Made by a program: the position numbers and the translations under genes. A DNA stretch of 32,000 nucleotides from Paracoccus suum (GTDB taxonomy: Bacteria; Pseudomonadota; Alphaproteobacteria; Rhodobacterales; Rhodobacteraceae), in assembly GCF_003324675.1 (NCBI RefSeq), contig NZ_CP030918.1:420001-452000 (forward strand), given 5' to 3'. The notes under the pieces were generated by a model. The model was given only the letters and a program-made list of their open reading frames with translations. It did not search any database and had not been told where the DNA came from. This document shows, piece by piece, positions 3,919 to 27,202 of the stretch (positions within the stretch are counted from its first letter, which is position 1; every line of letters starts with the position of its first letter).

Positions 3919-3925
3919 GGGTTTC

Positions 3926-8993: not shown

Positions 8994-9240
8994 GGGCACG
9001 CGCCGGCTCGGCGAGGGCGCCCGGCAGCGAGTCCCTGTCAGCGATCTGGCGCCCGACAAACTGCATATCGGCGCTGGGCGCCGAAATCGTCGCGGCTAGC
9101 CTCAACCTGAGGTGGTACTGTCGAATGGCGCGGTACGTCGCGACGGTATTCGGTTTCACGGTTGTTGCGGCAGGCCGCTTCGTTGCATGTACGCCCCTAA
9201 CCCCCTATCCCGCCCCTTTGCCCTGCCGCCGAGGTTTGCC

Positions 9241-10641
9241 ATGTTCCATCGCCCCATCGCCGCCGGCCTGCTGGCGCTGAGCCTCGCGGGGCTCGCCCCC
9301 GGCGCCCCGGCCCTCGCCCAGGTCCCGGGGCAGATGCCGCCCAAGCAGGTCGGCGTGGTCGAGATGCAGCTGCAGCCGGTGCCGCGCATCGTCACCCTGC
9401 CCGGCCGTGCGGTTGCCGGGGCCGAGGCGGCGATCCGCCCGCGCGTCTCGGGAATGGTCACCGAGATCCTTTATGATCCGGCGGTCCCGCTGAAAGCCGG
9501 CGCGCCGATGTTCCGGCTGGACGCAACCACCTACCAGTCCGGCGTCGTGACGGCCGAGGCGAACGTGGAATCCGCACAGGCCGCCTCGACCGAGGCTGAC
9601 GCCGCCGCCGGCCGGGCCAAGCGCCTGCTCGGCTCGGGCTCGACCCGTGTGCAGGCGGACAGCGCCCAGGCCGCTGCCGACCAGGCCGCCGCCCAGTTGC
9701 GGTCGGCCAAGGCCGCGCTCGACGTCGCCAAGGCCGAGCTTGGCTGGACGACCATCACCAGCCCCATCGACGGCTTCGCAAGCGTGGCCGCAGTCTCGGT
9801 CGGCGATCTCGTCACCGCCAATCAGGGCGAGGCGATGGCCACGGTCACGCGCCTCGATCCGATCGAAGTCGATATCCTGGTGCCGTCAGTGCGGCTGCAG
9901 TCGGTGATCGACGACATCGAATCGGGCCGGCTGAAGATGAACAAGACCCTGAACGCCACCCTGACGCTGGAGAACGGGCAGACCTACAAGGCCAAGGGCG
10001 AACTTGTGGCCCCCGGTTTCAGCGTCTCGACCACGACCGGGTCGGTCGACAACCGCTTCCGGTTCGAGAACCCGGACCGCAGGCTTTTGCCCGGCATGTT
10101 CCTTCGCGGCACGATCGAGCTGGGGACAACCCAGGCTTTCCTCGTCTCGCAATCTGCCGCGACGCGCGACCGGATCGGCGAGCTTTCGGTCTGGGTGGTC
10201 GAGGATGGCAAGGTCGTCCAGCGCAAGCTGAAGGACGATGGCAGCTGGAACAACAACTGGATTATCACCGATGGCCTGAAGGCGGGCGATCTGGTGGTGG
10301 CGGACAACCTGACCGGCCTGACGGCCGGCACGGCGGTGCAAACCCTGCCAGTGACCTATGACGAGCAGGGCGTGGTGCGCGCGGCACAGGCGACCCCCGC
10401 TGGCGGCGCGCCGGCCGCAACCCCGACCGATGGCGCGGCTTCCCCGGCGGCGAAGGCCCCAGCAGCCGTCTCAACCGGCACCGATGCGGCAGCCAGTAGC
10501 GGAGAGACGAACTCGTCCGAGGCGGCCGCCCCAGCCAGCACCCACGCCACGGACAGCGCCGAGGCACCGGCGGCCCCCGAAACCGATCCCGCAGCTGATG
10601 CGAAGCCGAATGGCGACGCGGCGGCCAAACCGGCCGAGTAG
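9241..10641 (+). CDS. RND efflux periplasmic adaptor (membrane fusion protein, AcrA/HlyD_D23-like) with a long Ala/Pro/Thr-rich C-terminal tail.
   Basis: ATG 9241 gives a signal-peptide-like start (MFHRPIAAGLLALSLAGLAPGAPALAQ) with GAGG upstream. An alpha-hairpin/coiled-coil segment (AEANVESAQAA...AAAQLRSAKAALDVAKAELGWT) is followed by barrel domains. The last ~86 aa are low complexity. Confidence 0.85.
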   Translation: MFHRPIAAGLLALSLAGLAPGAPALAQVPGQMPPKQVGVVEMQLQPVPRIVTLPGRAVAGAEAAIRPRVSGMVTEILYDPAVPLKAGAPMFRLDATTYQSGVVTAEANVESAQAASTEADAAAGRAKRLLGSGSTRVQADSAQAAADQAAAQLRSAKAALDVAKAELGWTTITSPIDGFASVAAVSVGDLVTANQGEAMATVTRLDPIEVDILVPSVRLQSVIDDIESGRLKMNKTLNATLTLENGQTYKAKGELVAPGFSVSTTTGSVDNRFRFENPDRRLLPGMFLRGTIELGTTQAFLVSQSAATRDRIGELSVWVVEDGKVVQRKLKDDGSWNNNWIITDGLKAGDLVVADNLTGLTAGTAVQTLPVTYDEQGVVRAAQATPAGGAPAATPTDGAASPAAKAPAAVSTGTDAAASSGETNSSEAAAPASTHATDSAEAPAAPETDPAADAKPNGDAAAKPAE

Positions 10642-10645
10642 TCCC

Positions 10646-13600
10646 ATGGCCCGCTTTTTCATCCACCGGCCCGTCTTTGCCTGGGTCATCGCGCTGATCG
10701 TCATGCTGGCCGGCGGCCTCGGGCTGACGCAGTTGCCGATCGAGCAATATCCCCAGATCGCGCCAACCACGGTCAGCGTGCGCGCGACTTATACCGGCGC
10801 CTCGGCCGAAATCGTCGAATCCTCGGTGACGACCGTCCTTGAGGACGCGATGACCGGGATCGAGGGGCTGATCTACATGACCTCCTCCTCGACGCCCGGT
10901 TCGGCGTCGATCTCGCTGACCTTCGACGACACGGTCGATGCGGACATTGCGCAGGTGCAGGTGCAGAACAAGCTGCAACTGGTGACCTCGCAACTGCCCT
11001 CGGTCGTGCAGCAGAGCGGCGTCAGCGTCACCCGCTCGACCTCGTCGATCCTGCTGGTCGGGGCGCTGACATCGCTGGACGGGCGCTACAGCTCGGTCCA
11101 GTTGGGCGACATCACCGCGCAGATGATCGAGAACCCGGTCCAGCGCACGCCGGGCGTCGGCTCGATCAACACCTTCAGTTCGGGTTACGCGATGCGCGTC
11201 TGGCTGGACCCGCTGAAGATGGTCCAGTACCAGGTCACGCCTTCGGACGTGATGGCCGCGGTGTCCGAGCAGAACACCAACGTTACCGTCGGCAACCTCG
11301 GCAGCCAGCCCTCGGCCGAGGGACAGCGGATCACGATCCCCGTCTCGGCCCAGTCGCAACTGTCGACCGTGCCCGAGTTCGAGAACATCCTGCTGCGCGT
11401 GGCCGAGGACGGCTCGACCGTGTTCCTGGGCGATGTCGCCCGGATCGAGATCGGGCAGGAATCCTACGGCGTCGATTCGCGCTACAACGGCCATCCGGCA
11501 GCGGGTTTCGCCGTGAACCTCGCCACTGGCGCAAACGCGGTCGACACCGCCGCCGCCGTTCGCGCGACCATCGCCGGGATCGAAAGCTCGCTGCCCCAAG
11601 GGGTCAGTGTGGTCTATCCCTACGACACCGCGCCGTTCGTCGAGAAATCAATCAACCAAGTCTACAAGACGCTGGCCGAGGCCGTAGTGCTGGTGTTCCT
11701 CGTGATCCTCGTCTTCCTGCAAAGCTGGCGCGCGACGCTGATCCCGGTGATCGCAATCCCGGTGGTTTTGCTGGGAACATTCGGCGTGCTTGCCATGGCG
11801 GGCTTCACGATCAACACGCTGACCATGTTTGCGCTGGTGCTGGCCATCGGCCTGCTGGTCGACGATGCCATCGTTGTGGTCGAGAACGTCGAGCGCGTGA
11901 TGGAGGAAGAGGGGCTCGACCCCGTTGCCGCGACCGAGCGCAGCATGGACGAGATCACCTCGGCGCTGGTCGGCATCGTGCTGGTGCTGTCGGCAGTGTT
12001 CCTGCCGATGGCCTTCATGGGCGGCGCCACGGGGGTCATCTATCGCCAGTTCTCGATCACCATCATCACCGCGATGGTGCTGTCCCTCGGGGTGGCGCTG
12101 ATCTTGACGCCGGCGATGTGCGCCAGCCTGCTGAAAAAGCGCGCCCATGGTGGCGGCATCGCCCCGGCGCGCTGGTTCAACACCGGCCTCGACAAGGTGA
12201 CGGGCGGCTATGCCGGGGTCGTCACGCGGCTGGTGCGCCGGCCGTTCATGATGCTGCTGGTGCTGCTGGCCTTTGGCTACGGCGCCTTCACCCTGTTCCA
12301 GAAGATGCCCGGCTCGTTCATCCCGCAAGAGGACCAGGGCGTGTTGATGGCGATGGTCTCGACCCCCGACGGCTCGACCATCGCGCAGACGACCGCGCTG
12401 GTCGAGGACATCGAGAAATACCTGCTGGAGCAAGAAAAAGAGACCGTGGAATCGGTCTTCGCCGCCGTTGGCTTCGGCTTCACCGGGCCGGGGCAGGACA
12501 CCGCGATGGTGTTCGTCAAGCTGCGGGACTACGCGGAGCGCGAGGGGCAGGACGCCGCCGCGCTGGTCAATCGGGCCAACGCCCATTTCTTCATGACCAA
12601 CCGCGCCGGGCAGGTGTTCGTGCTGCAACCGCCGGCCATTCAGGGCATGGGCACCTCGTCGGGCTTTACCATGTATCTGCTCGACCAGAGCGGCCAGGGC
12701 CAGGAACAGATGGCCAAGGCCGCCGACACGCTGGTCGCGACGGCGCAAAAGGATGGCCGCGTGACCAACCTGCGCGGCAACGACGCCCCCTACCAGAGCG
12801 CGCTGCGGCTGGACATCGACCAGCAACGCGCAGCCGCTTATGGCCTTTCGGTATCCGAAGTGAACGCCATGCTGTCGGTCATCTTCTCGGGGCGCGAGGT
12901 CAACGACTTTGCCCTCGGGACCGAACTGCGGCCGGTGATCGTGCAGGGCGAGGCGGCTGCCCGCTCGCAACCCGAGGACATCGACCTCTGGCATGCCCGC
13001 AACAGCGGCGGCGAGATGGTCTCGTTCGGCGCCTTCGCCAGCCGCGAATGGGACGAGCAGGCGCAGGCGCTGGCCCGCTTCGGCGGCACCCGGGCGCTGG
13101 AGATCAGTGGCAGCGCCGCGGCGGGCCTGTCCTCGGGTGCCGCGATGAACGCGATGGAGGAACTGGTCAGCGCCATGCCGGGCGGCTACGCGACCGCCTG
13201 GACCGGGCTGTCCTATCAGGAGCGTCTGTCCGGCAACCAGGCACCCATGCTGTTCGCGCTGTCGGCGCTGATCGTGTTCCTTGCTCTGGCCGCCCTTTAC
13301 GAGAGCTGGACGGTGCCGCTGGCGGTCATGATGACCGTGCCAATCGGAATCGTCGGCGCGCTGGCAGCGGCGCTTTACTTCGGCCAGTCGAACGACGTCT
13401 ATTTCAAAGTCGGCCTGCTGACGACCATCGGCCTCGCCGCGCGAAACGCGATCCTGATCGTCGAGTTCGCGCAGGCATTGGTCAAGGAGGGACGCCCCTT
13501 GCTGGAGGCTGCGATTGAAGCCTCGCGCATGCGCCTGCGGCCGATCCTGATGACGACCTTTGCCTTCATGCTGGGGGTGATGCCGCTGGCGATCGCCTCC

Positions 13601-13774
13601 GGCGCGGGTGCCGGGGCGCAGCGGTCCATCGGCATCGGCGTTCTGGGTGGCATGGCCGCCTCCGCCGCCATCGGTATCTTCCTTGTGCCGGTGTTCTATG
13701 TTGCGGTGATGCAGGCGACCCGCATGGTCCGCCGCCGCGGTCGCAAGGACCCGGCCCCCGAGGTCCGCGCCTGA
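10646..13774 (+). CDS. RND efflux permease (AcrB/MexB-like, HAE1 type).
   Basis: ATG 10646 gives the canonical MARFFIHRPVFAWVIALIVMLAGG N-terminus, 4 nt after the adaptor stop. About 1042 aa with 12-TM/2-loop RND organisation (..VLAIGLLVDDAIVVVEN.., ..GLAARNAILIVEFA..). Confidence 0.95.
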   Translation: MARFFIHRPVFAWVIALIVMLAGGLGLTQLPIEQYPQIAPTTVSVRATYTGASAEIVESSVTTVLEDAMTGIEGLIYMTSSSTPGSASISLTFDDTVDADIAQVQVQNKLQLVTSQLPSVVQQSGVSVTRSTSSILLVGALTSLDGRYSSVQLGDITAQMIENPVQRTPGVGSINTFSSGYAMRVWLDPLKMVQYQVTPSDVMAAVSEQNTNVTVGNLGSQPSAEGQRITIPVSAQSQLSTVPEFENILLRVAEDGSTVFLGDVARIEIGQESYGVDSRYNGHPAAGFAVNLATGANAVDTAAAVRATIAGIESSLPQGVSVVYPYDTAPFVEKSINQVYKTLAEAVVLVFLVILVFLQSWRATLIPVIAIPVVLLGTFGVLAMAGFTINTLTMFALVLAIGLLVDDAIVVVENVERVMEEEGLDPVAATERSMDEITSALVGIVLVLSAVFLPMAFMGGATGVIYRQFSITIITAMVLSLGVALILTPAMCASLLKKRAHGGGIAPARWFNTGLDKVTGGYAGVVTRLVRRPFMMLLVLLAFGYGAFTLFQKMPGSFIPQEDQGVLMAMVSTPDGSTIAQTTALVEDIEKYLLEQEKETVESVFAAVGFGFTGPGQDTAMVFVKLRDYAEREGQDAAALVNRANAHFFMTNRAGQVFVLQPPAIQGMGTSSGFTMYLLDQSGQGQEQMAKAADTLVATAQKDGRVTNLRGNDAPYQSALRLDIDQQRAAAYGLSVSEVNAMLSVIFSGREVNDFALGTELRPVIVQGEAAARSQPEDIDLWHARNSGGEMVSFGAFASREWDEQAQALARFGGTRALEISGSAAAGLSSGAAMNAMEELVSAMPGGYATAWTGLSYQERLSGNQAPMLFALSALIVFLALAALYESWTVPLAVMMTVPIGIVGALAAALYFGQSNDVYFKVGLLTTIGLAARNAILIVEFAQALVKEGRPLLEAAIEASRMRLRPILMTTFAFMLGVMPLAIASGAGAGAQRSIGIGVLGGMAASAAIGIFLVPVFYVAVMQATRMVRRRGRKDPAPEVRA

Positions 13775-13792
13775 GGAAAGCATCCCACCCCG

Positions 13793-15058
13793 CTAGGTGC
13801 GGAACCGGACCGTCGCGCAAAAGCCGTCGCCCCGCCCCGGTGCGGGCGAGGCCAAGGTCAGGGCCGCGCCTTCCCGCAGGGCGTGGCCCTCGACAATGGC
13901 GAGGCCAAGGCCGCTGCCTGACGCGCGGCTGGCGCCGCGCTGGAAGCGCCGGGTCAGTTGATTGAGCAGAGTGGGATCGAGCACCTGCCCGCCGTTGCAG
14001 ACTGTTAGCGTGTCGCCTGCCAGCACCACGGTGATCGGATCGGTCCCGTGCAAGACCGCGTTCTCGATCAGGTTGCGGGCGATGACGGCAAAGGCGTCCA
14101 GATCGACGGCCAGCAGGTGTGGCTTCTCCGGCAGGGCCAGTTCGGTCGTCGGAAACTCGGCCGCCACCAGTTGCAGCGCCTGCCGCACATCCTGTGGGGC
14201 CGCCTTCGGCCCCGAAGCGGCCCCGCCTTCGGCCCGGGCCAGTTCCAGCAGCTTGCCAGCGAGCCGGCCGACCCGGCGCAACTGCGCCGCCAGAGTTGAG
14301 GCGCGCCGCGCCAGGCGCGGGTCGGTCGCCTCGGCCTCCAGCATCTCGGCCTGGGCGAGGGCGGCGGCGATGGGGGTGCGCAACTCATGCGCGGCGTTCG
14401 AGGAGAAGGCGCGCTCGGCTGCGAGCGCTTCGTCGAGCCGCCCCATGAGTCGGTCGACGGCGTCATGCATCGGCTGCAGTTCGACCGGCAGTGGTGCCGC
14501 CGACAGCGGTCGCAGATCTGCTGCCCCGCGGTCCGCGACCTCGCGCGACAAGGCGTTGACCGGGGCCAGTTGCCGCCGGACAAAGCGCCACAGCCCGAAA
14601 ATGGCCAGCGGCAGTAACAATGCGAAGGGCACGAGCGCGGACAGCAGCGTCTCGCGCACCGCCTCACGTCGCTCGGCCAGCGGGTCCGCGACCTGCAGCA
14701 GTCCGCCATCGGGCAGTCGCTGCGTCAGCACCCGCAGGCCATCCACGCGCGAAAAGCCGATGGGCGTTTCCGCGGGCAACTCGCCGACAGCGTAAACCGT
14801 CTGGCCATCGGTCGCGGTCAGTCGCGCCCGCAGCGCCCCAGCAGGGCGGCGATCCCCTAGTCCCGCTGCACCCGCACCCGCCCCGATCACCGCCAGACGC
14901 TCGGATGTACGCGTCAGAGCTGCGTCATAGATCTCGTCAATTTCCACCCCCAGAACAGCCCAGCCGATGGCCAGCGCGGCCAGCCAGACCGCCACCAGCC
15001 CGCAGCCGAAGCCGAGCGTCAGATCGCGCGTCAGGCTTCGCGGCGGCGTCCTCGTCAC
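13793..15058 (-). CDS. Sensor histidine kinase (QseC/BasS-like; two TM segments, HAMP, HisKA, HATPase).
   Basis: H-box SNAAHELRTPIAA, N-box NLIENAVLHG and G-box GSGLGLAIVEG are present. I place the start at GTG 15058, which overlaps the response-regulator stop (GTGA). The longer ORF-track start would overlap the regulator gene by 265 nt. Confidence 0.85.
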   Translation of the reverse strand: MTRTPPRSLTRDLTLGFGCGLVAVWLAALAIGWAVLGVEIDEIYDAALTRTSERLAVIGAGAGAAGLGDRRPAGALRARLTATDGQTVYAVGELPAETPIGFSRVDGLRVLTQRLPDGGLLQVADPLAERREAVRETLLSALVPFALLLPLAIFGLWRFVRRQLAPVNALSREVADRGAADLRPLSAAPLPVELQPMHDAVDRLMGRLDEALAAERAFSSNAAHELRTPIAAALAQAEMLEAEATDPRLARRASTLAAQLRRVGRLAGKLLELARAEGGAASGPKAAPQDVRQALQLVAAEFPTTELALPEKPHLLAVDLDAFAVIARNLIENAVLHGTDPITVVLAGDTLTVCNGGQVLDPTLLNQLTRRFQRGASRASGSGLGLAIVEGHALREGAALTLASPAPGRGDGFCATVRFRT

Positions 15059-15711
15059 GGCGCGATCCGGTAGCCGACGCCACGCTGCGTCTCGATCGCG
15101 CTGCGGCCAAGCTTGCGCCGCAGCCGGCTGATATAGACTTCGACCGTGTTGCTCTCGGCGCCCTCCTCGAAGGAATAGATGCGGTCCTCGATCTGCGCCC
15201 GGCTCACAAAGCGGCCGGCACGCGCGATGAGGGTTTCCAGCACGATCCATTCGCGGCGGCCGACCTCGACGGGGCCGTCCGGGCCGGTGACCCGACGCCG
15301 GGCCAGATCGACCTGACACGCGCCCAGGCTTATGATCGGGCTGGGGTTGCCACCATATCGGCGGGCGACGGCGCCGATCCGGGCGGACAGTTCGGCCAGA
15401 TCGAAGGGTTTGACCAGATAGTCGTCCGCCCCGGCGTCGAGCCCCGCGATCCGCTCGGAAATACGGTCGCGCGCGGTCATCACGATCACGGGCACCTGGT
15501 GCCCCGCCGCCCGCAGCCGGCGCAGGAAGGCCAGCCCGTCGCCATCCGGCAACATCAGATCGAGCAGCACCAGATCATAGCTCATGGCCGACATGCAGGC
15601 ATCCGCATCGTCCAGCGTGGTCATCCAGTCGGGGAGGTGACCGTCGGCGGCGATCCGGTCGCGCACCGCGGCGCCGATCCCCTCGTCATCCTCGATCAGC
15701 AAGATCCGCAC
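15055..15711 (-). CDS. OmpR/PhoB-family response regulator.
   Basis: The receiver reads VRILLIEDDEGIG...DLVLLDLMLPDGDG...PVIVMTA...KPF. The winged-helix C-terminus reads ...VEVYISRLRRKL...TQRGVGYRIAP. GTG 15711 is chosen as the start. The ORF-track start at 15756 is a TTG that adds 15 atypical residues. Confidence 0.85.
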   Translation of the reverse strand: MRILLIEDDEGIGAAVRDRIAADGHLPDWMTTLDDADACMSAMSYDLVLLDLMLPDGDGLAFLRRLRAAGHQVPVIVMTARDRISERIAGLDAGADDYLVKPFDLAELSARIGAVARRYGGNPSPIISLGACQVDLARRRVTGPDGPVEVGRREWIVLETLIARAGRFVSRAQIEDRIYSFEEGAESNTVEVYISRLRRKLGRSAIETQRGVGYRIAP

Positions 15712-15779
15712 CCGACGTCCCCACGCGACAGGATCGCACGGTGACGCGAAATGCAAGGCAAGACCAGCCTTTGGCAGAT

Positions 15780-15798: not shown

Positions 15799-15820
15799 GT
15801 TGAAGGCGCAAGATATCCGG

Positions 15821-16414
15821 ATGACTTCGCTGATGCCGTCGCGCCCGCCCTCACGCCTCGCCCTGCGCTTCTTGCTGCGGGCGGGGCTGTTTTTCATCGG
15901 CTTGCTGATCGCCGCCGCCGGCTGGGCGGGCTTCCTGCAATACCGCGGCAACTTCCATCCGGTTCGCGCCGGCGAGATGTATCGTTCGGCCCAGCCGAGC
16001 CCCGAGGCGCTGACCAACTGGGCTGGCGTCAACGGCATTCGCAGCGTGGTCAACCTGCGTGGCGCCTCGGACTCCGACTGGTATCGCGACGAGATTGCAA
16101 CCTCGAAGCGCCTTGGCCTCGCCCATGCCGATTTCCGCATGAGCGCCGGCGAGCATCTGACCCCGGCCCGGGCCAACGAATTGCTCGCGTTGCTGGATTC
16201 AATGCCCGGCCCGGTGCTGATCCACTGCAAGTCGGGGGCCGACCGTACCGGCCTCGCGTCCGCCTTGTGGCTAGCGCGTCACGGCGGCGGCGAAGAGGCA
16301 GCCGAGTCGCAGATATCTTTCCGTTTTGGCCATGTCTCGCTGCCGCTGACCGCCGCCTGGCCCATGGACCAGAGCTGGGAGGCCCTGGAGCCCGAGATGG
16401 GATTTGCCAGCTGA
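15821..16414 (+). CDS. Membrane-anchored Cys-based phosphatase (PTP/dual-specificity superfamily, CX5R).
   Basis: Active-site signature VLIHCKSGADRTGLAS (HCxxGxxRT). There is one N-terminal TM helix (LALRFLLRAGLFFIGLLIAAAGWAGFL). The start is uncertain: ATG 15821, ATG 15833 or TTG 15800. The stop TGA overlaps the next ATG (TGATG). Confidence 0.75.
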   Translation: MTSLMPSRPPSRLALRFLLRAGLFFIGLLIAAAGWAGFLQYRGNFHPVRAGEMYRSAQPSPEALTNWAGVNGIRSVVNLRGASDSDWYRDEIATSKRLGLAHADFRMSAGEHLTPARANELLALLDSMPGPVLIHCKSGADRTGLASALWLARHGGGEEAAESQISFRFGHVSLPLTAAWPMDQSWEALEPEMGFAS

Positions 16415-17040
16415 TGAGCGTCACCGCCGACTCAAACCACACCATCACCCCCGCCAACCAGCGCCTTCGGATCGCGGTGTTGCGCATCCTGTTCGTGCTC
16501 GCCGCCCTGCCGATCCTCCTGGGCGTTCCCGTCTGGCACGGCGCCGCGCTGTCGCTGGTGCACACCCTGGGCACCTTAACGATCATCGCCGCGGTGCTGG
16601 GCCGGTTCTGGGCGATTCTCTATATCGGCGGTCGCAAGAACGCGACAGTCATGCAGGACGGCCCCTATTCGCTCTGCCGCCACCCGCTCTATTCCTTCTC
16701 GATCATCGGGGTGGTCGGCTTTGGCCTCGCGCTCGGCAGCGTGGTGCTGGCGGTGGCGCTCGGCGCGCTCGCCGCTGCTGTCCTGTGGCTGACCGCCCGA
16801 CGGGAGGAGCGTTTCCTGCGCGCCGCCTTTGGCCCCGCTTACGACGCCTACGCCGCCCACGTGCCCCGCCTGATGCCGCGCCTGTCCAATTTTCACACCC
16901 CCCCGCGCATCACGGTCGATTTGTCCGTCCTGCGCCGCAACCTGGCCGATGCACTGGTGTTTCTGACCGCAATCCCGCTGGCCGCGGCGATCCAGGCGAT
17001 GCACGCAGCGGGTTACGGGGCCGCCTTCCGCCTCTGGTAA
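16414..17040 (+). CDS. ICMT/PEMT-family integral-membrane methyltransferase (isoprenylcysteine carboxyl methyltransferase-like).
   Basis: 208 aa and polytopic. The family core is present: GPYSLCRHPLYSFSIIG ... REERFLRAAFGPAYDAYAAHVPRLMP (the RHPxY...EE..L...FG..Y..Y motif). The ORF-track entry 15751..17040 is the same frame running open upstream. ATG 16414 is the coupled start. Confidence 0.8.
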   Translation: MSVTADSNHTITPANQRLRIAVLRILFVLAALPILLGVPVWHGAALSLVHTLGTLTIIAAVLGRFWAILYIGGRKNATVMQDGPYSLCRHPLYSFSIIGVVGFGLALGSVVLAVALGALAAAVLWLTARREERFLRAAFGPAYDAYAAHVPRLMPRLSNFHTPPRITVDLSVLRRNLADALVFLTAIPLAAAIQAMHAAGYGAAFRLW

Positions 17041-17078: not shown

Positions 17079-17876
17079 CTAGCCCAGACGGTGGACGCCC
17101 TCGGGCGCGACGCCGAATGCAGCGAGGGCCATCCACACCGCCATGGCGATCATCATCAGGTTCTCGACCAGCGAGATAAAGCCCAGCGGCACGTTGCTGC
17201 CCCCGCCGACGCAGGCGCATTTCAACTCGCGGTTCTCGACATAGACCGCCTTGAAGACCGACACCGCGCCGACCGTCCCGATGAAAAGTGCGATGGGCAC
17301 CGACAGCCAGGTCAGCGCGCCCGCGATCATCAGAACGCCTGCCAGCCCCTCGGCAAAGGGATAGATATAGCCGTAGGGCACCCAGCGCTCGGCCAGAAGG
17401 TCGTAGTTCAGGAACATCGTGGCGAACGTCTCGACGTTCTGCAGCTTGAGCAGCGCCAGCACGGCCATTGAGAAGCCGATGAACCATTCCGCGGCCATCA
17501 GCGTCAGCGGGTTTCCGGTGACAGCATAGCTTGCCGCCATCGCCATCAACGCCGTCGTCGCGAACAGCGCGATGACCGGGCGATAGCTGGTCGCCTTGGG
17601 ATCCGCGACACTCTTGCCGAGGAAGCGGCGCAGGTCGTCATGCCCGCCGATTCGTTTGCCGTCGATAAAGATCTGGGGCGTGGTCGCAACGCCGTGTTCG
17701 GCCTTGAAGGCCTGGGTCTGCTCGCGTGTCTCGAGGTGATGATCCTCGACCTGGTAGCCGGCGCGCTTGAGCAGATGCATGGATTTCAGCCCATAGGGGC
17801 AGGTGTGCCCGGGCATCACCATGCGGTACAGCGCCGCTTTCGTTCCGGGTGCTGGATGTTTGCTCAGGTCCGACAT
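17079..17876 (-). CDS. Fusion protein: an N-terminal glutaredoxin-like domain (monothiol CPYG) joined to a C-terminal MauE/DoxX-like 4-TM membrane domain.
   Basis: ATG 17876 (MSDLSKH...) is preceded by AAGGAA. The Grx fold reads ALYRMVMPGHTCPYGLKS...TTPQIFIDGKRIGGHDDLRRFL. Four hydrophobic helices follow, with ELKCACVGGGSNVPLG before the last one. Confidence 0.8.
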   Translation of the reverse strand: MSDLSKHPAPGTKAALYRMVMPGHTCPYGLKSMHLLKRAGYQVEDHHLETREQTQAFKAEHGVATTPQIFIDGKRIGGHDDLRRFLGKSVADPKATSYRPVIALFATTALMAMAASYAVTGNPLTLMAAEWFIGFSMAVLALLKLQNVETFATMFLNYDLLAERWVPYGYIYPFAEGLAGVLMIAGALTWLSVPIALFIGTVGAVSVFKAVYVENRELKCACVGGGSNVPLGFISLVENLMMIAMAVWMALAAFGVAPEGVHRLG

Positions 17877-17906
17877 CTCACGTTCCTTGTGGTGGGGCCG
17901 GGGCAG

Positions 17907-17938
17907 ATATAGGGTCTGTACCATGGTACAGAGTCAAG
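17907..17938 (-). promoter_or_regulatory. MerR-type promoter/operator for the Grx-MauE gene: -35, 20-bp spacer carrying an 18-bp perfect palindrome, -10.
   Basis: The minus strand reads CTTGAC (17938-17933), then T-CTGTACCATGGTACAG-ACC, then CTATAT (17912-17907). The palindrome TCTGTACCATGGTACAGA spans 17915-17932. The layout mirrors Tn21/Tn501 merO (TTGACTCCGTAC...GTACGGA) inside an overlong spacer. Confidence 0.65.
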
Positions 17939-18327
17939 AGTCGAACACGCTGACGATTGGCGGCCTTGCAGCAGGCGGGAAGGTCGGGGTCGAGACGGTC
18001 CGATTCTACCAGCGCAAGGGTCTGCTCGGCACGCCCCACCGCGTTGGCGGGATCCGTCGCTACGGCGGCGAGGATCTGCGCCGCCTGCGCTTTATCCGCC
18101 AGGCACAGGCGGCCGGGTTTACACTGGAGGAGATCAAGGAACTGCTGCTCCTCGACGCCGGCGAGGACCGCGCGCGGGCGCGCGAACTCGCCCACGCAAG
18201 GGTCGAGCATCTGAACGCCAAGATCGCCGATTTAGAGCGCGCAAGGGACGCCCTGCGGCGGCTCGCAAACGAATGCGAGCATGGCGTCAAGGGCCCCTGC
18301 CCGATCCTCGCGTCATTCGGGATTTAG
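17923..18327 (+). CDS. MerR-family metal/thiol-responsive regulator of the Hg-MerR clade by sequence, but with only two Cys.
   Basis: 134 aa. MVQSQESNTLTIGGLAAGGKVGVETVRFYQRKGLL...IRRYGGEDLRRLRFIRQAQAAGFTLEEIKELL...ANECEHGVKGPCPILASFGI is colinear with Tn21 MerR. ATG 17923 is in frame with the ORF-track entry 17803..18327 and gives a MerR-length N-terminus. Confidence 0.9.
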   Translation: MVQSQESNTLTIGGLAAGGKVGVETVRFYQRKGLLGTPHRVGGIRRYGGEDLRRLRFIRQAQAAGFTLEEIKELLLLDAGEDRARARELAHARVEHLNAKIADLERARDALRRLANECEHGVKGPCPILASFGI

Positions 18328-21076: not shown

Positions 21077-22288
21077 TCAGGCGAACAGCTCGCGGCAGAA
21101 GATCAGGCCGTCGATCAGGGCGTCAACCTCGGCCTCGGTGTTGTAGAGGGCAAAGCTGGCACGGGCGCTCGCGGTAACGCCGTAGAACTGCATCAGCGGC
21201 ATGGCGCAGTGGGTGCCGGCGCGGATGGCGATGCCGCGCTTGTCGAGGATGGTCGAGAGGTCATGCGCATGCGCCCCCTCCATCGTCATCGAGAAGATCG
21301 CCCCTTTGCCCGGTGCATCCCCCTGGACGGTCAGCCAGTTCAATTCCCGCAGGCGCGCGCGGGCGTGGTCGCGCAGCGCACGCTCATGCGCGGCGATGTT
21401 CTCCATCCCGAGGCCCATCATGTAGTCGAGCGCGACGCCCAGGCCGATCTGGTTGACGATGCCAGGCGTGCCGGCCTCGAACCGCAGCGGCGGGTCGGCA
21501 TAGGTCACGGCCTCGCGCGTGACCTCCCGGATCATGTCACCGCCGCCCATGAAGGGGCGCATCTCGTCCTGGCGGGCGCGGTCGATCCAGATCGCACCCG
21601 AGCCGGACGGGCCATACAGCTTGTGCCCGGTGATGGCGTAGAAGGCGCAGCCAAGCGCCGGCACATCCAGCGGCAGGTGGACGGCAGCCTGGCTGCCATC
21701 GACCAGAACCGGAACGTCAGTGCCGCGCGCGATGGCGCCGACATCGACGACGGTGCCCGTCACGTTCGACATGTGGGTGACGGCGATCAGCTTGGTGCGG
21801 GGGGTGATCGCAGCCAGCATCTTTTCCGGCGGCAAGCTGCCGTCGGGTTCTGGCTCGACCCATTTCAGCACGACGCCCTGACGCTCGCGCAGGAAAGCCC
21901 AGGGGACGATATTGGCGTGGTGCTCCAGCACCGACAGCAGGATCTCGTCCCCGGCCTTCAGGCGCGGGGCGGCCCAGGAATAGCTGACCAGATTGATGGC
22001 CTCGGTCGCGCCGGAGGTGAAGATCACCTCGGCCGGATGGCGCGCCTTGAGGAAGCGGGCGATGGTGCCGCGCACCGCCTCGTAACGCTCGGTCGCAAGG
22101 GTCGACAGCGTGTGCAGCCCGCGGTGGACGTTGGCGTATTCGCCTTCGTATGTGCGCGAGATGGCGTCGATCACGACGCGCGGCTTTTGCGCGCTGGCGC
22201 CGTTGTCGAGGTAGACCAGCGGCCGGCCGTTGACCTGCCGCGACAGGATCGGGAAATCGGCGCGGATGGCGGGCAGATCAAGCGTCAT
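21077..22288 (-). CDS. sufS: Cysteine desulfurase SufS (group II).
   Basis: 403 aa. The PLP-Lys motif is [13 protein letters not shown] and the active-site motif is RAGTHCAMP. The ATG overlaps the upstream stop (ATGA). Confidence 0.9.
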
Positions 22289-22878
22289 GGCAGCGCCTCC
22301 GGGGCGGGCAGCAGGCCAAGCATGGCCAGAACGACGCTGAGGACGGCGCCGGTCAACATCAGCGTCGAGACCATGCCAAGGGCGACGAGGAAGGGATTGG
22401 AAAATCCGTGCAGCGCGGTCGTCACTCGCACCGCCAGAACGACATAGAGCGCCAGCGTCGCCAGCGACAGCATGGTAGAGGCAGAGGGCAGGACCACCAT
22501 GAGCGCCAGTTGCACGGCCTGCGCGGCGATGATGATCAGGTCGATCCAGGTCAGCGCCAGCAACGCGTCAGGAAAATTGCCATGGCCGCCAAACATCTGG
22601 CCGACGCGCGCCATCAGCGCGGCGGCAGCCGTCAGGGCAAAGAACTGCAGCACCGTCAGTACAATGGGCGAGGCGACCAGCAGCGCGCTGGCGCCCCCGG
22701 CCTGAGAAGGAAACATCAGGTTTGCAAGGCCGGCCAGAATCGAAGACAGGACCGTCGCGAGGGCCAGGGCTGCCCAGCGGTCCGCCATCGGCAGTTGCAG
22801 CCCGCGCATCATGGCGATGGCGCGGTCCGGCCTTTGCAGGGTCAGCATGGCCATGCGCGTGAAGGCCGACGGGTTCAT
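22285..22878 (-). CDS. Polytopic membrane protein, Yip1-domain-like, function unknown.
   Basis: ATG 22878 (MNPSAFTRMAMLTLQRPDRAI...) is preceded by AGGAAA. 197 aa with about 5 hydrophobic helices. It overlaps both neighbours by 4 nt (ATGA at each end). The family call is from general appearance only. Confidence 0.7.
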   Translation of the reverse strand: MNPSAFTRMAMLTLQRPDRAIAMMRGLQLPMADRWAALALATVLSSILAGLANLMFPSQAGGASALLVASPIVLTVLQFFALTAAAALMARVGQMFGGHGNFPDALLALTWIDLIIIAAQAVQLALMVVLPSASTMLSLATLALYVVLAVRVTTALHGFSNPFLVALGMVSTLMLTGAVLSVVLAMLGLLPAPEALP

Positions 22879-23387
22879 TTTCCTGGCCTTTCGATCAACG
22901 CCCGCACACCCGAGAGCCAGATGAACAGGAACCCGGTCCCGGCCAGCAGCCGCGTCGCGGTCAGCGCCGGGCCGGGACCGACCAGCCCCTCGGTGAGACC
23001 AGCCAGCAACATCGCCGGGGCAACGGCCAGCAGTGCCCAGAAGAGCGCGAGCCGCGAATCGGCTGGGTGGAGCACCCATCCGCCAAGGCGTAGCAGCCAA
23101 CTGAGCGCCTGCGCCGCGCCGTAGGCAGCCAGCGGCATCAGGAACATGACGGCAAGCCCTGCCCCGGCCAGGCGCGGTCCCAACGGAATCCCCGGGTCCA
23201 GCGCCGCTGCCCGCGCGTGGCCGGGCGCCTGCGCGATCAGGAAGACCAGCAGCGCCGCCAGCAGGAGCGCCAGCAGGGCGCCCTCGGGCATGCCGCGCAA
23301 TCCGCGCACGACCCGCCCCGGTGCGAACCAGCTTTCCAGCACGCGCGGCGCCAGGCCGCGGGCGGCGCGGGGCGGCGCCGGTCTCAC
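22875..23387 (-). CDS. Polytopic membrane protein, possible paralogue of the downstream Yip1-like protein, function unknown.
   Basis: 170 aa from GTG 23387, which overlaps the sufD stop (GTGA). It has an Arg-rich N-terminus followed by 4-5 hydrophobic helices (LLALLLAALLVFLIA, AGLAVMFLMPLAAYGAA, LALFWALLAVAPAMLLAGL, LLAGTGFLFIWL). The coupling at both ends argues that it is real. Confidence 0.6.
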   Translation of the reverse strand: MRPAPPRAARGLAPRVLESWFAPGRVVRGLRGMPEGALLALLLAALLVFLIAQAPGHARAAALDPGIPLGPRLAGAGLAVMFLMPLAAYGAAQALSWLLRLGGWVLHPADSRLALFWALLAVAPAMLLAGLTEGLVGPGPALTATRLLAGTGFLFIWLSGVRALIERPGK

Positions 23388-24646
23388 CCGCCGTTGCCAA
23401 TCTGGCCGGCGTCGGCGGTCAACGCCTCCTCGACGCGGGCAGAAATGCGGCTGCGCAGGCCGTCATCCTCGATCTCGGCCAGCGCGTCGGCGAGGAAGGA
23501 GAGCACCAACAGCACTTCGGCCTGAGCCTTGGGCACGCCGCGCGAGCGCAGGTAGAACAACGCCGTCTCGTCGATCGCGCCGGTGGTGCTGCCGTGGCTG
23601 CACTTCACGTCGTCGGCGTAGATTTCCAGTTCGGGCTTGGCGAGGAACTGGCACAGTTCATCCAGCAGCAGCGACTGGCTGATCTGGTAGCCGTCGGTTT
23701 TCTGCGCGCCCGGCCGGACCAGGATCTTGCCCTGAAAGATGCCGGTCGCGCTGCCCCGTAGTACCTTTTTGAACACTTGGCGGCTTTCACCGCGCAGGCC
23801 GCCGTGAATGATGAATACCGTGTCATCGTTGATGAAATCGCGGCCATCGCCCAGCGCGGCGCCGGCCAGATGGACCACCGCGTCATCGCCGACGACATCG
23901 ATCACTGCCTCGCGACGAAGATGCCGGCCATCCAGCGCCAGCGCAAAGGACTTGAGCACCGATTCGTTGCCGAGACGCGCGAACAGATGCGAGAGCGCCA
24001 GTTCGTCGCCGCGGCGCTTGGCGGCGATCAGGTGCAGCTTGGCACCGTCGGCGAGATCGGCCTCGATCACCGAGTTCTGTCGCGAGCCGGCCGAGCCGGT
24101 CTCGATCAGTGTCAGCTCGGCCCCCGGTTCGAGGTGGATGACATGGTGCCAGACCGCATCGCCGGCCGCCTCGGTGCGCCGATGCAGGATGTGAAGCGGC
24201 CGCGTGGGGCGGCCGGTGACGCGGATCGCGAGGCCATCCGCGGCCCTTGCGGTATTCATCGCCGCCAGGGGACGCGGCACCGGGATATGCGCCGCCGCCT
24301 CGCGCGCGCCGTAGGCGCGGCGCGCCCAGTCCGGCGCTGCCGCCAAGGGCGCAATCTCGACCCCGTCCAGCGGCAGCGGATCGGAGGCTGCGGCGTCAAA
24401 ACGGCCATCCACGAAAACCAGCGTCAGGCGGTCCAGATCGGAGAACAGCGTGCCGTCGCCCTGCGGCAGGGCGACGGAAGGCGCATCGCCCTGCGAGAAA
24501 TCGGCTGGGCCGGCAAAGCGCCAGTATTCGTCCCGGCGGCCGGGCAGGCCCAATTGCGCCAGGCGATCCTCGGCCGCTTGCCGGGCGACGCCTAGGGGCG
24601 AATCGCTCGCCGGGGTTCGGGTCAGGACAGGTGACAGGTCCGCCAT
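23384..24646 (-). CDS. sufD: Fe-S cluster assembly protein SufD.
   Basis: 420 aa with a beta-helix-type SufD C-terminus (...QKTDGYQISQSLLL...AKPELEIYADDVKCSHGSTTGAIDE..LFYLRSRG). The ATG overlaps the sufC stop by 1 nt. Confidence 0.9.
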   Translation of the reverse strand: MADLSPVLTRTPASDSPLGVARQAAEDRLAQLGLPGRRDEYWRFAGPADFSQGDAPSVALPQGDGTLFSDLDRLTLVFVDGRFDAAASDPLPLDGVEIAPLAAAPDWARRAYGAREAAAHIPVPRPLAAMNTARAADGLAIRVTGRPTRPLHILHRRTEAAGDAVWHHVIHLEPGAELTLIETGSAGSRQNSVIEADLADGAKLHLIAAKRRGDELALSHLFARLGNESVLKSFALALDGRHLRREAVIDVVGDDAVVHLAGAALGDGRDFINDDTVFIIHGGLRGESRQVFKKVLRGSATGIFQGKILVRPGAQKTDGYQISQSLLLDELCQFLAKPELEIYADDVKCSHGSTTGAIDETALFYLRSRGVPKAQAEVLLVLSFLADALAEIEDDGLRSRISARVEEALTADAGQIGNGG

Positions 24647-25401
24647 CAGCGGGCCTCCGACAGGATCGCACCGTAACCGTCGCGCTCGACCTCCAGCGCC
24701 AGCTCGGGGCCGCCGCTGCGCACGATCCGGCCATCAGCCATGATGTGCACCACGTCCGGGCGGATATGGTCCAGCAGCCGCTGGTAGTGCGTGATGACCA
24801 GGAAGGCGCGATCCGGTGCGCGCAGGGCGTTCACCCCCTCGGAGACGAGGCGCATGGCATCAACGTCGAGGCCGCTGTCGGTCTCGTCAAGGATGCACAT
24901 CCGCGGCTCCAGCATGGCCATCTGCAGGATTTCGTTGCGCTTTTTCTCGCCGCCCGAGAAACCGACGTTGACCGGACGCTTCAGCATCTCGGCGTCGATC
25001 TTCAGCGCATTGGCTTTCTCGCGCACCAGCTTGAGGAAGTCGCCGGCCGAAAGCTCGGCCTCGCCGCGCGCCTTGCGCTGGGCGTTCATCGCGGTGCGCA
25101 GGAAGGTCATATTGCCCACGCCCGGGATCTCGACCGGGTACTGGAACGCCAGGAACAGGCCCGCGGCGGCACGGTCCTCGGGCTCCATCTCCAGCAGGTC
25201 GACGCCGTCCAGCGTGGCTGTACCCTCGGTCACCTCATAGCCGTCGCGACCTGACAGCACATAGCTGAGGGTCGACTTGCCCGAGCCGTTCGGCCCCATG
25301 ATGGCATGGACCTCGCCGGCCGGAACGCTCAGCGTGACGCCCTTGAGGATTTGCTTGTCCTCGTCCTCGAGCTTGACGTGAAGGTCGTTGATTTCCAGCA
25401 T
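24646..25401 (-). CDS. sufC: Fe-S cluster assembly ATPase SufC.
   Basis: ATG 25401 (MLEINDLHVKL...) is preceded by AGGTAGGA. Walker A is GPNGSGKST, the signature is FSGGEKKRNEILQ, and Walker B is CILDETDSGLD. Confidence 0.95.
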   Translation of the reverse strand: MLEINDLHVKLEDEDKQILKGVTLSVPAGEVHAIMGPNGSGKSTLSYVLSGRDGYEVTEGTATLDGVDLLEMEPEDRAAAGLFLAFQYPVEIPGVGNMTFLRTAMNAQRKARGEAELSAGDFLKLVREKANALKIDAEMLKRPVNVGFSGGEKKRNEILQMAMLEPRMCILDETDSGLDVDAMRLVSEGVNALRAPDRAFLVITHYQRLLDHIRPDVVHIMADGRIVRSGGPELALEVERDGYGAILSEAR

Positions 25402-25441
25402 GGTCCTACCTGTCCGCAAGGCCCGCCGCGGTCGGCCGGGC

Positions 25442-25467
25442 TTAGAATAACTGATCCGTCAAAGTTC
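25442..25467 (-). promoter_or_regulatory. Candidate ECF/sigmaE-like internal promoter ahead of sufC.
   Basis: The minus strand reads GAACTT (25467-25462), then 15 nt, then TCTAA (25446-25442). It sits in the single AT-rich island of the 275-nt sufB-sufC spacer, about 40 nt upstream of the sufC ATG. This is pattern resemblance only. Confidence 0.2.
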
Positions 25468-25676
25468 GTGTCGTCCGCAGGCCATCGCCTATCCCGATTT
25501 CCCCCGCGCGGCCAGACCGTCCGCCATCCGGCGCGGGGCGCCAAAGGCGCATGTGCCTTGGGGCGATATGGGACTGGGCGCGTTAGACATGCTCAAGACA
25601 TTCCCATGGCGGGCTGGGCCATTGGCCGGAACGATGGTTTGATGGCGACCGCCCCAGGCACGGGGCGGCGGCTTTG

Positions 25677-27200
25677 TCAGCCGACGCTGCCCTCGAGGCT
25701 GATGGCGACCAGCGCCTGCGCCTCCATGGCGAATTCCATCGGCAGGGCCTGAAGCACCTCGCGGCAAAAGCCGTTCACGACCAGGGCGACGGCTTCCTCC
25801 TCGTCCATGCCGCGCTGACGGCAGTAGAACAGTTGCTCGTCATCGACCTTGCTCGTGGTCGCCTCGTGCTCGACGCGCGAGGACATGTTCTTGACCTCGA
25901 TATAGGGCACCGTGTGGGCGCCGCATCGATCGCCGATCAGCAGGCTGTCGCACTGCGTGTAGTTGCGGCTATTGGTCGCCTTGGGGTGCATCGTCACCAG
26001 CCCGCGATAGGTATTCTGGGCGCGGCCGGCGCTGATCCCCTTGGATACGATGCGCGAGCGGGTGTTGCGGCCAAGATGGAGCATCTTGGTTCCGGTGTCG
26101 GCCTGCTGGCGGTTGTTGGTGATCGCGATCGAATAGAATTCGCCCTGCGCGCCATCACCGCGCAGGATGCAGGACGGGTATTTCCAGGTAATCGCGCTGC
26201 CGGTCTCGACCTGGGTCCACATCACCTTGGCGTTCGCCTCGCGGCAATCAGCGCGCTTGGTGACGAAGTTGTAGATTCCGCCGTTGCCTTCCTCGTCGCC
26301 CGGAAACCAGTTCTGGACAGTCGAGTATTTCACCTCGGCATCCTCGAGGATCACCAGTTCGACCACCGCGGCGTGCAGCTGCGCGGTGTCGCGCTTGGGC
26401 GCGGTGCAGCCCTCGAGGTAGCTGACATAGCTGCCTTTGTCGGCGATGATCAGCGTCCGCTCGAATTGGCCAGTATTCTCGGCATTGATGCGGAAATAGG
26501 TCGACAGCTCCATCGGGCAGCGGGTGTTCGGCGGGATGTAGACAAAGCTGCCGTCCGAAAACACTGCGCTGTTCAGCGTCGCGAAATAGTTGTCCGACTG
26601 GGGCACGACGCTGCCGAGGTACTTCTTGACCAGCTCGGGATAGTCGCGGATCGCCTCGCTGATCGGGCAGAAGATCACGCCGGCTCGGGCCAGTTCTTCT
26701 TTGAAGGTGGTGCCCACGCTGACGCTGTCGAAGACGGCATCGACGGCGACCCGGCGGCCCTCGGCGGGGGCCGCGTCCTCGCCCTCGACTCCAGCGAGGA
26801 TCGCCTGTTCCTTCAGCGGGATACCCAGTTTGGCATAGGTCGCCAGCAGCTTGGGATCGACGTCATCCAGCGATTGCGGGCGCACCACCATGCTTTTGGG
26901 GCGCGCGTAATAATACTGGTCCTGGAAATCGATGTCGGGGTAATCGACCATCGCCCAGCGCGGCTCTTCCATCTGCTGCCAGCGGCGGAAGGCGGTCAGA
27001 CGCCATTCGGTCATCCATTCCGGCTCTTCGTTGCGCTGCGAGATCAGTCGGACGATATCCTCGGAAATGCCCTTTGGGGCATACTCCATCTCGATTTCGG
27101 TATCCCAGCCGTATTTGTAGGCGCCCATGCCCTGCACGGTTGCAACCGTCGCGGCGTCGACACCCTCGCGGACGTCAAGATCAAGTGCGGCCTCGGCCAT
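25677..27200 (-). CDS. sufB: Fe-S cluster assembly scaffold SufB.
   Basis: ATG 27200 is preceded by AGGAGG and a 6-nt spacer. The ORF-track start at 27206 is a TTG. The protein reads as typical SufB throughout (...[17 protein letters not shown]..., ...[11 protein letters not shown]..., ...[19 protein letters not shown]). Confidence 0.95.
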
Positions 27201-27202
27201 GG

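Follow-up and report, generated by a model that had tools for sequence, protein, structure and literature searches.

The 32,000-nucleotide window analyzed here (Paracoccus suum, contig NZ_CP030918.1, positions 420,001 to 452,000) encodes a MerR-family regulator of 134 amino acids at 17923-18327 on the plus strand (stop codon included), divergent from a gene for a glutaredoxin-MauE fusion protein (grx-mauE). We favor, with moderate confidence, a regulator of the Cu(I)/Ag(I) class, which would sense its ion through a linear two-thiolate site and activate grx-mauE from a mer-type operator, the effector being deduced from genomic context. This assignment is the best supported one because mer genes are absent from the loci of the family, copper markers are found near a subset of them, other loci carry a cysteine-rich peptide or a P1B ATPase, DUF305 is fused to several homologues of the target, relatives with Arg or His at the same position adjoin copper-type ATPases, and the residue at position 77 is known to separate monovalent from divalent sensors. 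Metalloregulators of the MerR family that act at long-spacer promoters are a well-known kind of system. New are the pairing of a CueR-type two-cysteine loop with a DNA-binding domain and operator of mer type, the arginine at the selectivity position, and the predicted regulon, namely Grx-MauE (SmGrx3) and, in some species, a metallothionein-like peptide and a copper ATPase. We found no paper on this regulator in full-text literature searches, and none of the curated models names it.

The open reading frame (ORF) of the regulator is intact, and its product is 100% identical to the NCBI protein 'MerR family transcriptional regulator [Paracoccus suum]'. Pfam recovers a winged-helix MerR_1 domain at residues 11-75 (17953-18147, plus strand; PF13411, 59 bits, E 3.7e-16), which includes VGVETVRFYQRKGLL and IRRYG, and a MerR DNA-binding/dimerization segment at residues 52-114 (PF09278, 62 bits). 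Both the helix-turn-helix (HTH) and the coiled-coil dimerization helix are thus present. The top match in the PDB is Tn501 MerR (5crl; residues 8-132, E 2e-25), in agreement with the colinearity proposed in a first-pass annotation of this DNA. The two proteins align without gaps until the metal loop, where there is a net difference of one residue. Next in rank are the 132-residue 'Regulatory protein' 4ua1, CueR, CadR and ZntR. Among the strings that the first-pass annotation listed as shared with MerR, VETVRFYQRKGLL and IRRYG are present, but NLTIG is not, since the window reads N-T-L-T-I-G and the common string is LTIG. The equal distance from the L(E/D)EI motif to the first loop cysteine was recovered as well (50 positions, L68 to C118, compared with L67 to C117 in MerR, or 51 when counted inclusively).

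The sensor half of the protein resembles CueR. There are two cysteines in total, C118 and C126, located in the loop and short C-terminal helix C-EHGVKGP-C-PILASF (18274-18318, plus strand). Their Cx7C spacing, followed by P-I-L, is that of CueR and differs from the Cx8C of MerR. HMMER aligns LLLLDAGEDR with LLRLEDGTHC, which places Arg83 in the column of MerR Cys82, and the alignment with CueR places it over Ser77 (the Asp82-Arg83 codons are at 18166-18171, plus strand). Thus, the description of the sensor half in the first-pass annotation, with two cysteines in CueR-like spacing, Arg in the Cys82 column and no Cys at position 77/82, is borne out. Its statement that Ser versus Cys at position 77 splits sensors of +1 ions from those of +2 ions corresponds to published results, in which CueR and GolS respond to +2 ions as well once Ser77 is replaced by Cys (PMC7911910, PMC9733647).

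Curated family models do not assign the regulator to any characterized type. The top NCBIfam model is that of MerR (TIGR02051), where the score of 105.9 is below the cut-off of 150.85. The same holds for the second MerR model (NF010315, 99.9 versus 261), the two CueR models (TIGR02044, 80.2 versus 147.4; NF007590, 52.2 versus 244), ZntR (81.5 versus 168) and CadR-PbrR (59.5 versus 151). The protein also lacks the Cys at 77-79 that is characteristic of ZntR, CadR and PbrR. Scores against SoxR (53.4 versus 116.9 bits) and NmlR/AdhR (40.4 bits versus an equivalog cut-off of 175 bits) are below the thresholds too, and the CX2CXCX5C [2Fe-2S] motif of SoxR is absent from a protein with only two cysteines. 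The generic 'MerR family' name at NCBI is explained by the fact that every curated cut-off is missed. The automatic name at JGI, 'mercuric resistance operon regulator', is backed by no defining feature beyond the DNA-binding half.

Comparison with the named systems places the regulator between two of them. With Tn501/Tn21 MerR it shares length, fold class and colinearity over residues 8-132, a near-identical HTH recognition segment (VET[VI]RFYQRKGLL), the 7-4-7 dyad TCCGTAC-N4-GTACGGA after a TTGACT -35 box with a 19-20 bp spacer, and the divergent gene arrangement in which the regulator gene overlaps the operator. It differs from MerR in having Arg for Cys82, Cx7C for Cx8C and no Cys115, in scoring below the equivalog cut-off, and in facing a glutaredoxin-MauE fusion instead of merTPA. 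With CueR/GolS/HmrR (1q05; TIGR02044) it has in common the two metal-ligand cysteines in Cx7C spacing followed by P-I-[IL] and the lack of Cys77; copper-type P1B ATPases adjoin members of its family and their relatives. By contrast, it has Arg for Ser77 and no C-terminal CCHH tail, its DNA-binding domain and operator are mer-type, and its main putative target is Grx-MauE rather than copA or cueO.

The regulator is no lone oddity, for it belongs to a large and conserved family whose partner gene is fixed. A scan at one genome per species yielded at least 346 relatives, of which the best 80 loci (L001-L080) were fetched and aligned with the window, giving 81 regulator sequences. More than 120 distinct clusters at the 90% identity level are at least 74% identical to the P. 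suum protein, and nearly all of the 120 closest ones have two cysteines in a C-x2-G-x2-G-P-C-P loop, that is, Cx7C. Residues C118, C126, P127, I128 and F132 are invariant (80 of 80), D82 is found in 77 of 80 sequences, and R83 in 74, with His in the remaining six. The hosts are mostly Alphaproteobacteria (Sphingomonadales, Rhizobiales, Rhodobacterales, Caulobacterales and Acetobacterales), with some Gammaproteobacteria (for instance, Lysobacteraceae and Idiomarina). Plasmids carry the gene too, in 89 records, of which 49 are Sinorhizobium megaplasmids. In a neighbor-joining tree built from all columns, Arg-type regulators stand apart from Cys-type ones. When the diagnostic columns are removed, the Cx7C clade retains a bootstrap of 79%, but the split between Arg-type and Cys-type regulators drops to 4-7%, and the mean identity of the clade to the Arg-type and to the Cys82-type groups is nearly equal (44.9% versus 43.7%). 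We therefore make no claim that the clade is sister to Hg-MerR or nested within it, and a sister-clade placement considered during the analysis was dropped. The 'Hg-MerR clade' label of the first-pass annotation is accordingly too strong: the regulators do form a well-supported clade of their own, but the tree gives no support to any particular deep position of this clade with respect to Cys82-type MerR.

The only conserved neighbor of the regulator is grx-mauE, found in divergent orientation in 72 of the 80 loci. In the window it occupies 17079-17876 on the minus strand and encodes a protein of 265 amino acids with a glutaredoxin (PF00462) and a MauE (PF07291) domain, starting at the ATG after AAGGAA. 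Three cysteines of Grx-MauE are conserved: C26 of the active site C-P-[YW]-G, and C220 and C222 of the motif K-C-A-C-V-G-G-x-S-N-V-P-L-G. The monothiol C-P-Y-G site of the P. suum protein has its Cys26 codon at 17799-17801 (minus strand; conserved in 69 of 69 sequences and invariant in alignment A1), and the Cys220-Ala-Cys222 codons of the MauE domain are at 17211-17219 (minus strand; 67 of 69, likewise invariant in A1). The gene is orthologous to SMa0280/SmGrx3 of Sinorhizobium meliloti, which is located on pSymA in the same divergent pair with a MerR-like gene. A review portrays SmGrx3 as an atypical glutaredoxin that combines a CPYG site with a MauE domain and has low deglutathionylation activity; heat shock is listed as an inducing condition, and the function 'still remains to be elucidated' (PMC6315971). 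Architecture and divergent MerR-like neighbor are thus the same as in P. suum, but SmGrx3 has been studied as a glutaredoxin alone, and its regulator and a link to metals are not discussed in that work (PMC6315971). Nor did we find a paper linking Grx-MauE to metals in our literature searches, and the supplementary tables of PMC5045206 contain no glutaredoxin target. Hydropathy and secondary structure in the AlphaFold2 model suggest five membrane helices. If the glutaredoxin domain is inside, the CxC loop would lie on the cytoplasmic side of the membrane and the C-terminus on the outer side. Several homologues carry a C-terminal DUF305 domain, forming three-domain Grx-MauE-DUF305 fusions of 353-376 amino acids (P0276, P0320, P0332, P0361, P0375, P0386 and P0388). 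The position of DUF305 fits the predicted outside-facing C-terminus. This domain occurs in copper-binding periplasmic proteins, for example cyanobacterial CopM.

The region between the two genes contains a perfect 18-bp palindrome, TCTGTAC-CATG-GTACAGA (17915-17932), which is the only such dyad in the window (one match, 0.04 expected) and the predicted operator. On the minus strand, the sequence reads TTGACT-CTGTACCATGGTACAGACC-CTATATC, with a putative -35 hexamer TTGACT of the grx-mauE promoter at 17932-17937, kept as TTGACT or TTGATT across the aligned loci, and a putative -10 element (C)TATAT(C) at 17906-17912, 19-20 nt past the -35. The consensus over the 80 loci is TTGACT-CCGTAC-CATG-GTACGG-AAC(C)-TATA, with the dyad TCCGTAC-CATG-GTACGGA. 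The MerR signal published for proteobacteria is the same (TCCGTAC-N4-GTACGGA with a 19-bp spacer; PMC1526738), and the window dyad departs from it symmetrically in both arms. The mer-type operator named in the first-pass annotation is thus recovered as a 7-4-7 dyad with a 19-20 bp spacer after TTGACT, and as the only dyad in the promoter it matches the MerR signal rather than a CueR-type operator. Over-long spacers are characteristic of promoters that MerR-type regulators activate by distorting the DNA (PMC5045206). A scan for the sigma-70 consensus allowing spacers of 16-18 nt returned no promoter in the 5' region of grx-mauE, because the 19-20 nt spacer exceeds this range; the blank result fits a long spacer of MerR type without being proof of one. 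The regulator would bind at 17915-17932 and activate transcription there.

The start codon of the regulator (17923-17925) lies in the CC-ATG-G center of its own operator, and the first five codons (M-V-Q/R-S-Q) coincide with one operator arm and the divergent -35 box. This dyad-center ATG is the only canonical in-frame start in 28 of the 81 loci, including the window, and is in frame beside a downstream alternative in 15 more, while the others use a downstream ATG. With the start codon inside the dyad center, the regulator very probably autoregulates. The arrangement would imply a leaderless or near-leaderless mRNA with built-in autoregulation.

The genomic context provides the lead on the effector. 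The first-pass annotation held that the effector cannot be read from homology; we agree, and the comparative context adds a lead that favors Cu(I)/Ag(I) over Hg. Searches with annotated merT, merP, merC and merA queries (tblastn) gave no match in the 80 family loci, in 11 other fetched loci or in the 32-kb window, which sets the family apart from Tn501/Tn21 MerR. Copper-associated markers, that is DUF305, DUF411, CopC, CopD, a P1B ATPase or a Met-rich outer-membrane-protein-like (OMP-like) gene, are located within 4 kb of the regulator in 24 of the 80 loci. One of the fetched loci, L064, from a metagenome-assembled genome (MAG) labelled Bordetella sp., is near-identical to the Brevundimonas loci L063 and L071-L078, copC, copD and DUF305 included, suggesting that the locus was recently transferred or that the MAG was misbinned.

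Eight loci lack Grx-MauE, and their regulators are 64-74% identical to that of the window, with the same Arg and loop. In seven of them (L004, at about 2940-3040 on the minus strand, L008, L009, L014, L017, L035 and L079), an unannotated ORF for a cysteine-rich peptide of about 34 residues (e.g. MADQTTVRADQNCKCGCATEFGCRCNPCTCKNCNC) follows just downstream of the MerR-type promoter, and a hairpin comes after it. The peptides have about 31-35 residues with the pattern ..NCKCGCAxxxGCRCNPCTCKNCxC up to the stop codon and 7-10 cysteines in CxC motifs (9-10 in most copies). They look like small bacterial metallothioneins, judging from their composition, and have no match in Pfam, NCBIfam or the PDB. 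The gene after that of the peptide encodes, in L004, a P1B ATPase scoring above the cut-off of the copper-type model TIGR01511 (598 bits) and, in L009, L014, L017 and L079, a Met/His-rich OMP-like protein of about 450 amino acids; we could identify no clear gene downstream of the peptide in L008 and L035. The first gene in L029 encodes an ATPase with two HMA domains, whose best NCBIfam match is CopA; this gene is truncated at the edge of the locus and, at 373.8, falls just short of the TIGR01511 cut-off of 397. P1B ATPases are thus present in two of the 80 family loci, one of them clearly above the copper-type cut-off. The Met/His-rich protein (L017, 2449-3852, minus strand; L079, 2453-3754, minus strand; L009, L014 and also L059) is about 430-490 amino acids long, with a signal-like N-terminus and MPGMxMP repeats followed by the conserved region ..GALGxYxMxRExSGTAWQPD.. 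Pfam and NCBIfam give no match for this protein, which may represent a new copper- or silver-related outer-membrane protein.

Similar associations are found outside the Cx7C clade. Among representatives at 50% identity, the Cys82 column holds Arg, His or Lys in many clusters that also have a two-cysteine loop, usually Cx8C. We read the neighbors of nine such Arg/His-type relatives, and the upstream region in five of these loci. A P1B ATPase or HMA gene adjoins seven of the nine; of the other two, one has a divergent ICMT/PEMT gene next to it, surrounded by DUF411, CsoR-like and CusF genes, and the other a divergent DUF4396 gene. All four complete ATPases score as copper-type (553-603 bits for TIGR01511 versus 385-397 for TIGR01512). 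Like the Cx7C clade, these relatives (for example P0144, P0153 and P0155, beside YHS/HMBD or HMA P1B ATPases) have Arg or His after Asp in the Cys82 column and two loop cysteines followed by P-I, and the TTGACT-CCGTAC-N4-GTACGG operator is found in three of the five upstream regions. Unlike it, they have a Cx8C or Cx9C loop and a copper-type ATPase instead of Grx-MauE as the putative target, and are 39-62% identical to it (mean 45%); common ancestry of the two to the exclusion of Cys82-type MerR has no bootstrap support. In two loci, a DsbD_2-family membrane protein is encoded directly downstream of an Arg/His-type regulator with a Cx8-9C loop, with an HMA ATPase upstream (L094, 4486-5196, and L093, 698-1198, both on the minus strand), another thiol-membrane protein paired with this type of regulator. 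A tblastn search of plasmids with the Arg-type relative P0157 returned canonical Hg-MerR only. The merR-copA-cupredoxin-ICMT clusters of Alteromonas are reportedly induced by copper (PMC8478169) and were considered as an experimental anchor, but the regulator of the one that we fetched belongs to another MerR type (cd04787-like, with a different cysteine pattern).

By analogy with MerR and CueR, a dimer of the regulator would bind the 7-4-7 dyad at 17915-17932 inside the over-long 19-20 bp spacer and keep the grx-mauE promoter off without effector. The effector-bound dimer would under-twist the DNA and switch grx-mauE transcription on. The effector site would consist of two thiolates, Cys118 and Cys126, of the Cx7C-P-I-L loop, with Arg83 of the partner subunit sitting where MerR has its third ligand, Cys82. 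For a site of two thiolates with Arg83 in place of Cys82, the likeliest effector is a monovalent thiophilic ion held in linear two-coordination, namely Cu(I) and perhaps Ag(I) or Au(I) as well. Arg83 would keep out a third ligand and balance the negative charge that the Cu(I) bis-thiolate carries. This role of Arg83, next to the near-constant Asp82, as charge balancer or replacement of the third ligand is a guess, since we found no characterized MerR-family sensor with a documented Arg at 77/82. More speculatively, Grx-MauE might then act as a copper-stress membrane protein, either in thiol-dependent handling or export of Cu(I) or as a reductant relay.

Several points weigh against a Cu(I)/Ag(I) sensor. 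The effector is inferred from genomic context only, and 56 of the 80 loci have no copper marker within 4 kb. No copper gene lies beside the module in the P. suum window either. The nearest characterized homologue and the operator are both those of Hg(II)-MerR, and Hg(II) is able to form linear bis-thiolates. Our literature search found Arg at 77/82 in no characterized MerR-family sensor, and bootstrap analysis gives no support for joining the Cx7C clade to the ATPase-associated Arg-type relatives. The AlphaFold2 model of Grx-MauE (mean pLDDT 64, below 50 around the CxC motif) is too poor at this site to probe the proposed thiol cluster of Cys26 and the CxC pair. Finally, the S. meliloti grx3 mutant has no reported phenotype (PMC6315971).

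The same observations leave some room for other effectors. Oxidants, electrophiles or glutathionylation could modify or cross-link Cys118 and Cys126 and turn on grx-mauE as a thiol-repair function. Such thiol-stress sensing is unlikely but still plausible, because the target contains a glutaredoxin, in addition to the 'redox-associated' MauE domain, and SMa0280 has heat shock as its listed inducer and is weakly deglutathionylating (PMC6315971); the lack of a third metal ligand in the regulator and the presence of suf genes and gshB in the neighborhood would be in line with it. On the other hand, the invariant G-P-C-P-I-[LI] is the sequence signature of the metal-binding loop in MerR and CueR, and the models of the redox sensors SoxR and NmlR give much lower scores (53 and 40 bits). 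The DUF305 fusions, the nearby copper markers, and the metallothionein-like peptide, copper-type ATPases and Met-rich OMP-like genes putatively driven by regulators of the same family also speak against it. A non-canonical Hg(II) sensor, binding the ion linearly on the two loop cysteines and controlling a mercury-tolerance accessory from an ordinary mer operator, we rate as less probable again. Two-coordinate Hg(II) sensing keeps its plausibility from the closest homologue (Tn501 MerR, E 2e-25) and from an operator consensus identical to the mer signal; MerR is also the best NCBIfam model, the automatic JGI names point to mercury, and two-coordinate Hg(II) thiolates are chemically allowed. Yet the MerR equivalog cut-off is missed (105.9 versus 150.85), merT, merP, merC and merA occur in none of the 80 loci nor in the window, and the associated transporters are copper-type rather than mer-type. 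Moreover, Cys82, a part of the Hg(II) site of MerR (PMC7911910), is replaced throughout the family.

A sensor of divalent thiophilic metals (Cd, Zn or Pb), which would add non-Cys ligands to the two cysteines and control sequestration and thiol protection, appears improbable. The metallothionein-like peptide as the putative target in seven loci would suit it, as would one locus that adjoins a CadR/ZntR-like regulator and a CDF transporter, and the ZntR score is about the same as that of CueR (81.5 versus 80.2 bits). However, divalent sensors use a Cys at 77/79/82, which is missing here, the loop has no conserved His or Asp for extra ligands, and the neighboring ATPases score as copper-type over Cd/Zn-type. 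The loss of one of the three MerR cysteines and the absence of mer genes nearby might also be expected of a decayed, non-functional merR copy left by a lost mer operon. The conservation data exclude this with near certainty: the ORF is intact, strong conservation in at least 80 species and on 89 plasmids extends from the loop and the Arg to the operator and the partner gene, and the clusters at 90% identity that are at least 74% identical to the regulator number more than 120.

The module is surrounded in the window by genes for a resistance-nodulation-division (RND) pump and a two-component system, a protein tyrosine phosphatase-like (PTP-like) phosphatase, an ICMT/PEMT-like protein, an aldehyde dehydrogenase and a cupin, and by a tRNA-Arg gene, the suf operon, coaBC and gshB. 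The RND efflux pair (membrane-fusion protein and AcrB-family pump) and, on the opposite strand, an OmpR-type response regulator and histidine kinase occupy 9112-15756. Between the two-component system and the ICMT-like gene there is a small DSP/PTP-like phosphatase (15800-16414, plus strand; HCKSGADRTG) with an apparent N-terminal membrane or signal segment. The ICMT/PEMT-family membrane methyltransferase gene (about 16400-17040, plus strand) is convergent with grx-mauE and has no homologue in any other family locus; ICMT genes are also found beside the Arg-type MerR relative L083 and in the copA clusters of Alteromonas (PMC8478169). The suf genes for Fe-S cluster assembly (sufS, a Yip1-like gene, sufD, sufC and sufB) lie about 3 kb from the module, with coaBC and gshB beyond (21077-27206 and 31291-31974, both on the minus strand). 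Copper toxicity is tied to Fe-S clusters and glutathione, and the proximity of suf and gshB to the module is not conserved in other loci. Further away, two paralogous genes of the proline racemase family (1229-2245 and 3845-4954, plus strand) lie close to each other, and a GMC oxidoreductase, an MFS transporter and a regulator of the IclR type are encoded nearby. Together they are probably a cluster for the catabolism of hydroxyproline or a proline derivative.

More broadly, and tentatively, CueR may not be the only lineage of Cu(I)/Ag(I) sensors, and the family may belong to another, with an Hg-MerR-like DNA-binding domain, a mer operator and the Cys82 to Arg replacement. One branch of this lineage would control a Grx-MauE(-DUF305) copper-defense device, so far unrecognized, that uses a three-thiol cytoplasmic site and glutathione for hand-off or export of Cu(I) or for a transmembrane reductant relay; we regard this extended scheme as possible rather than probable. 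In any case, a large natural family with Arg at 77/82 would add a third state to the Ser (+1) and Cys (+2) rule and challenge its simplicity, and the automatic annotation of its members as 'mercuric resistance operon regulator' is probably wrong. Since the operator is the same as merO, the regulator and true MerR could cross-talk in cells that have both, and such cross-talk between mercury and copper regulons is possible on plasmids. A mer promoter with a non-Hg effector is also a possible biosensor part. For the rhizobial SmGrx3, the association with this regulator provides the first concrete and testable lead on function, namely copper or silver stress.

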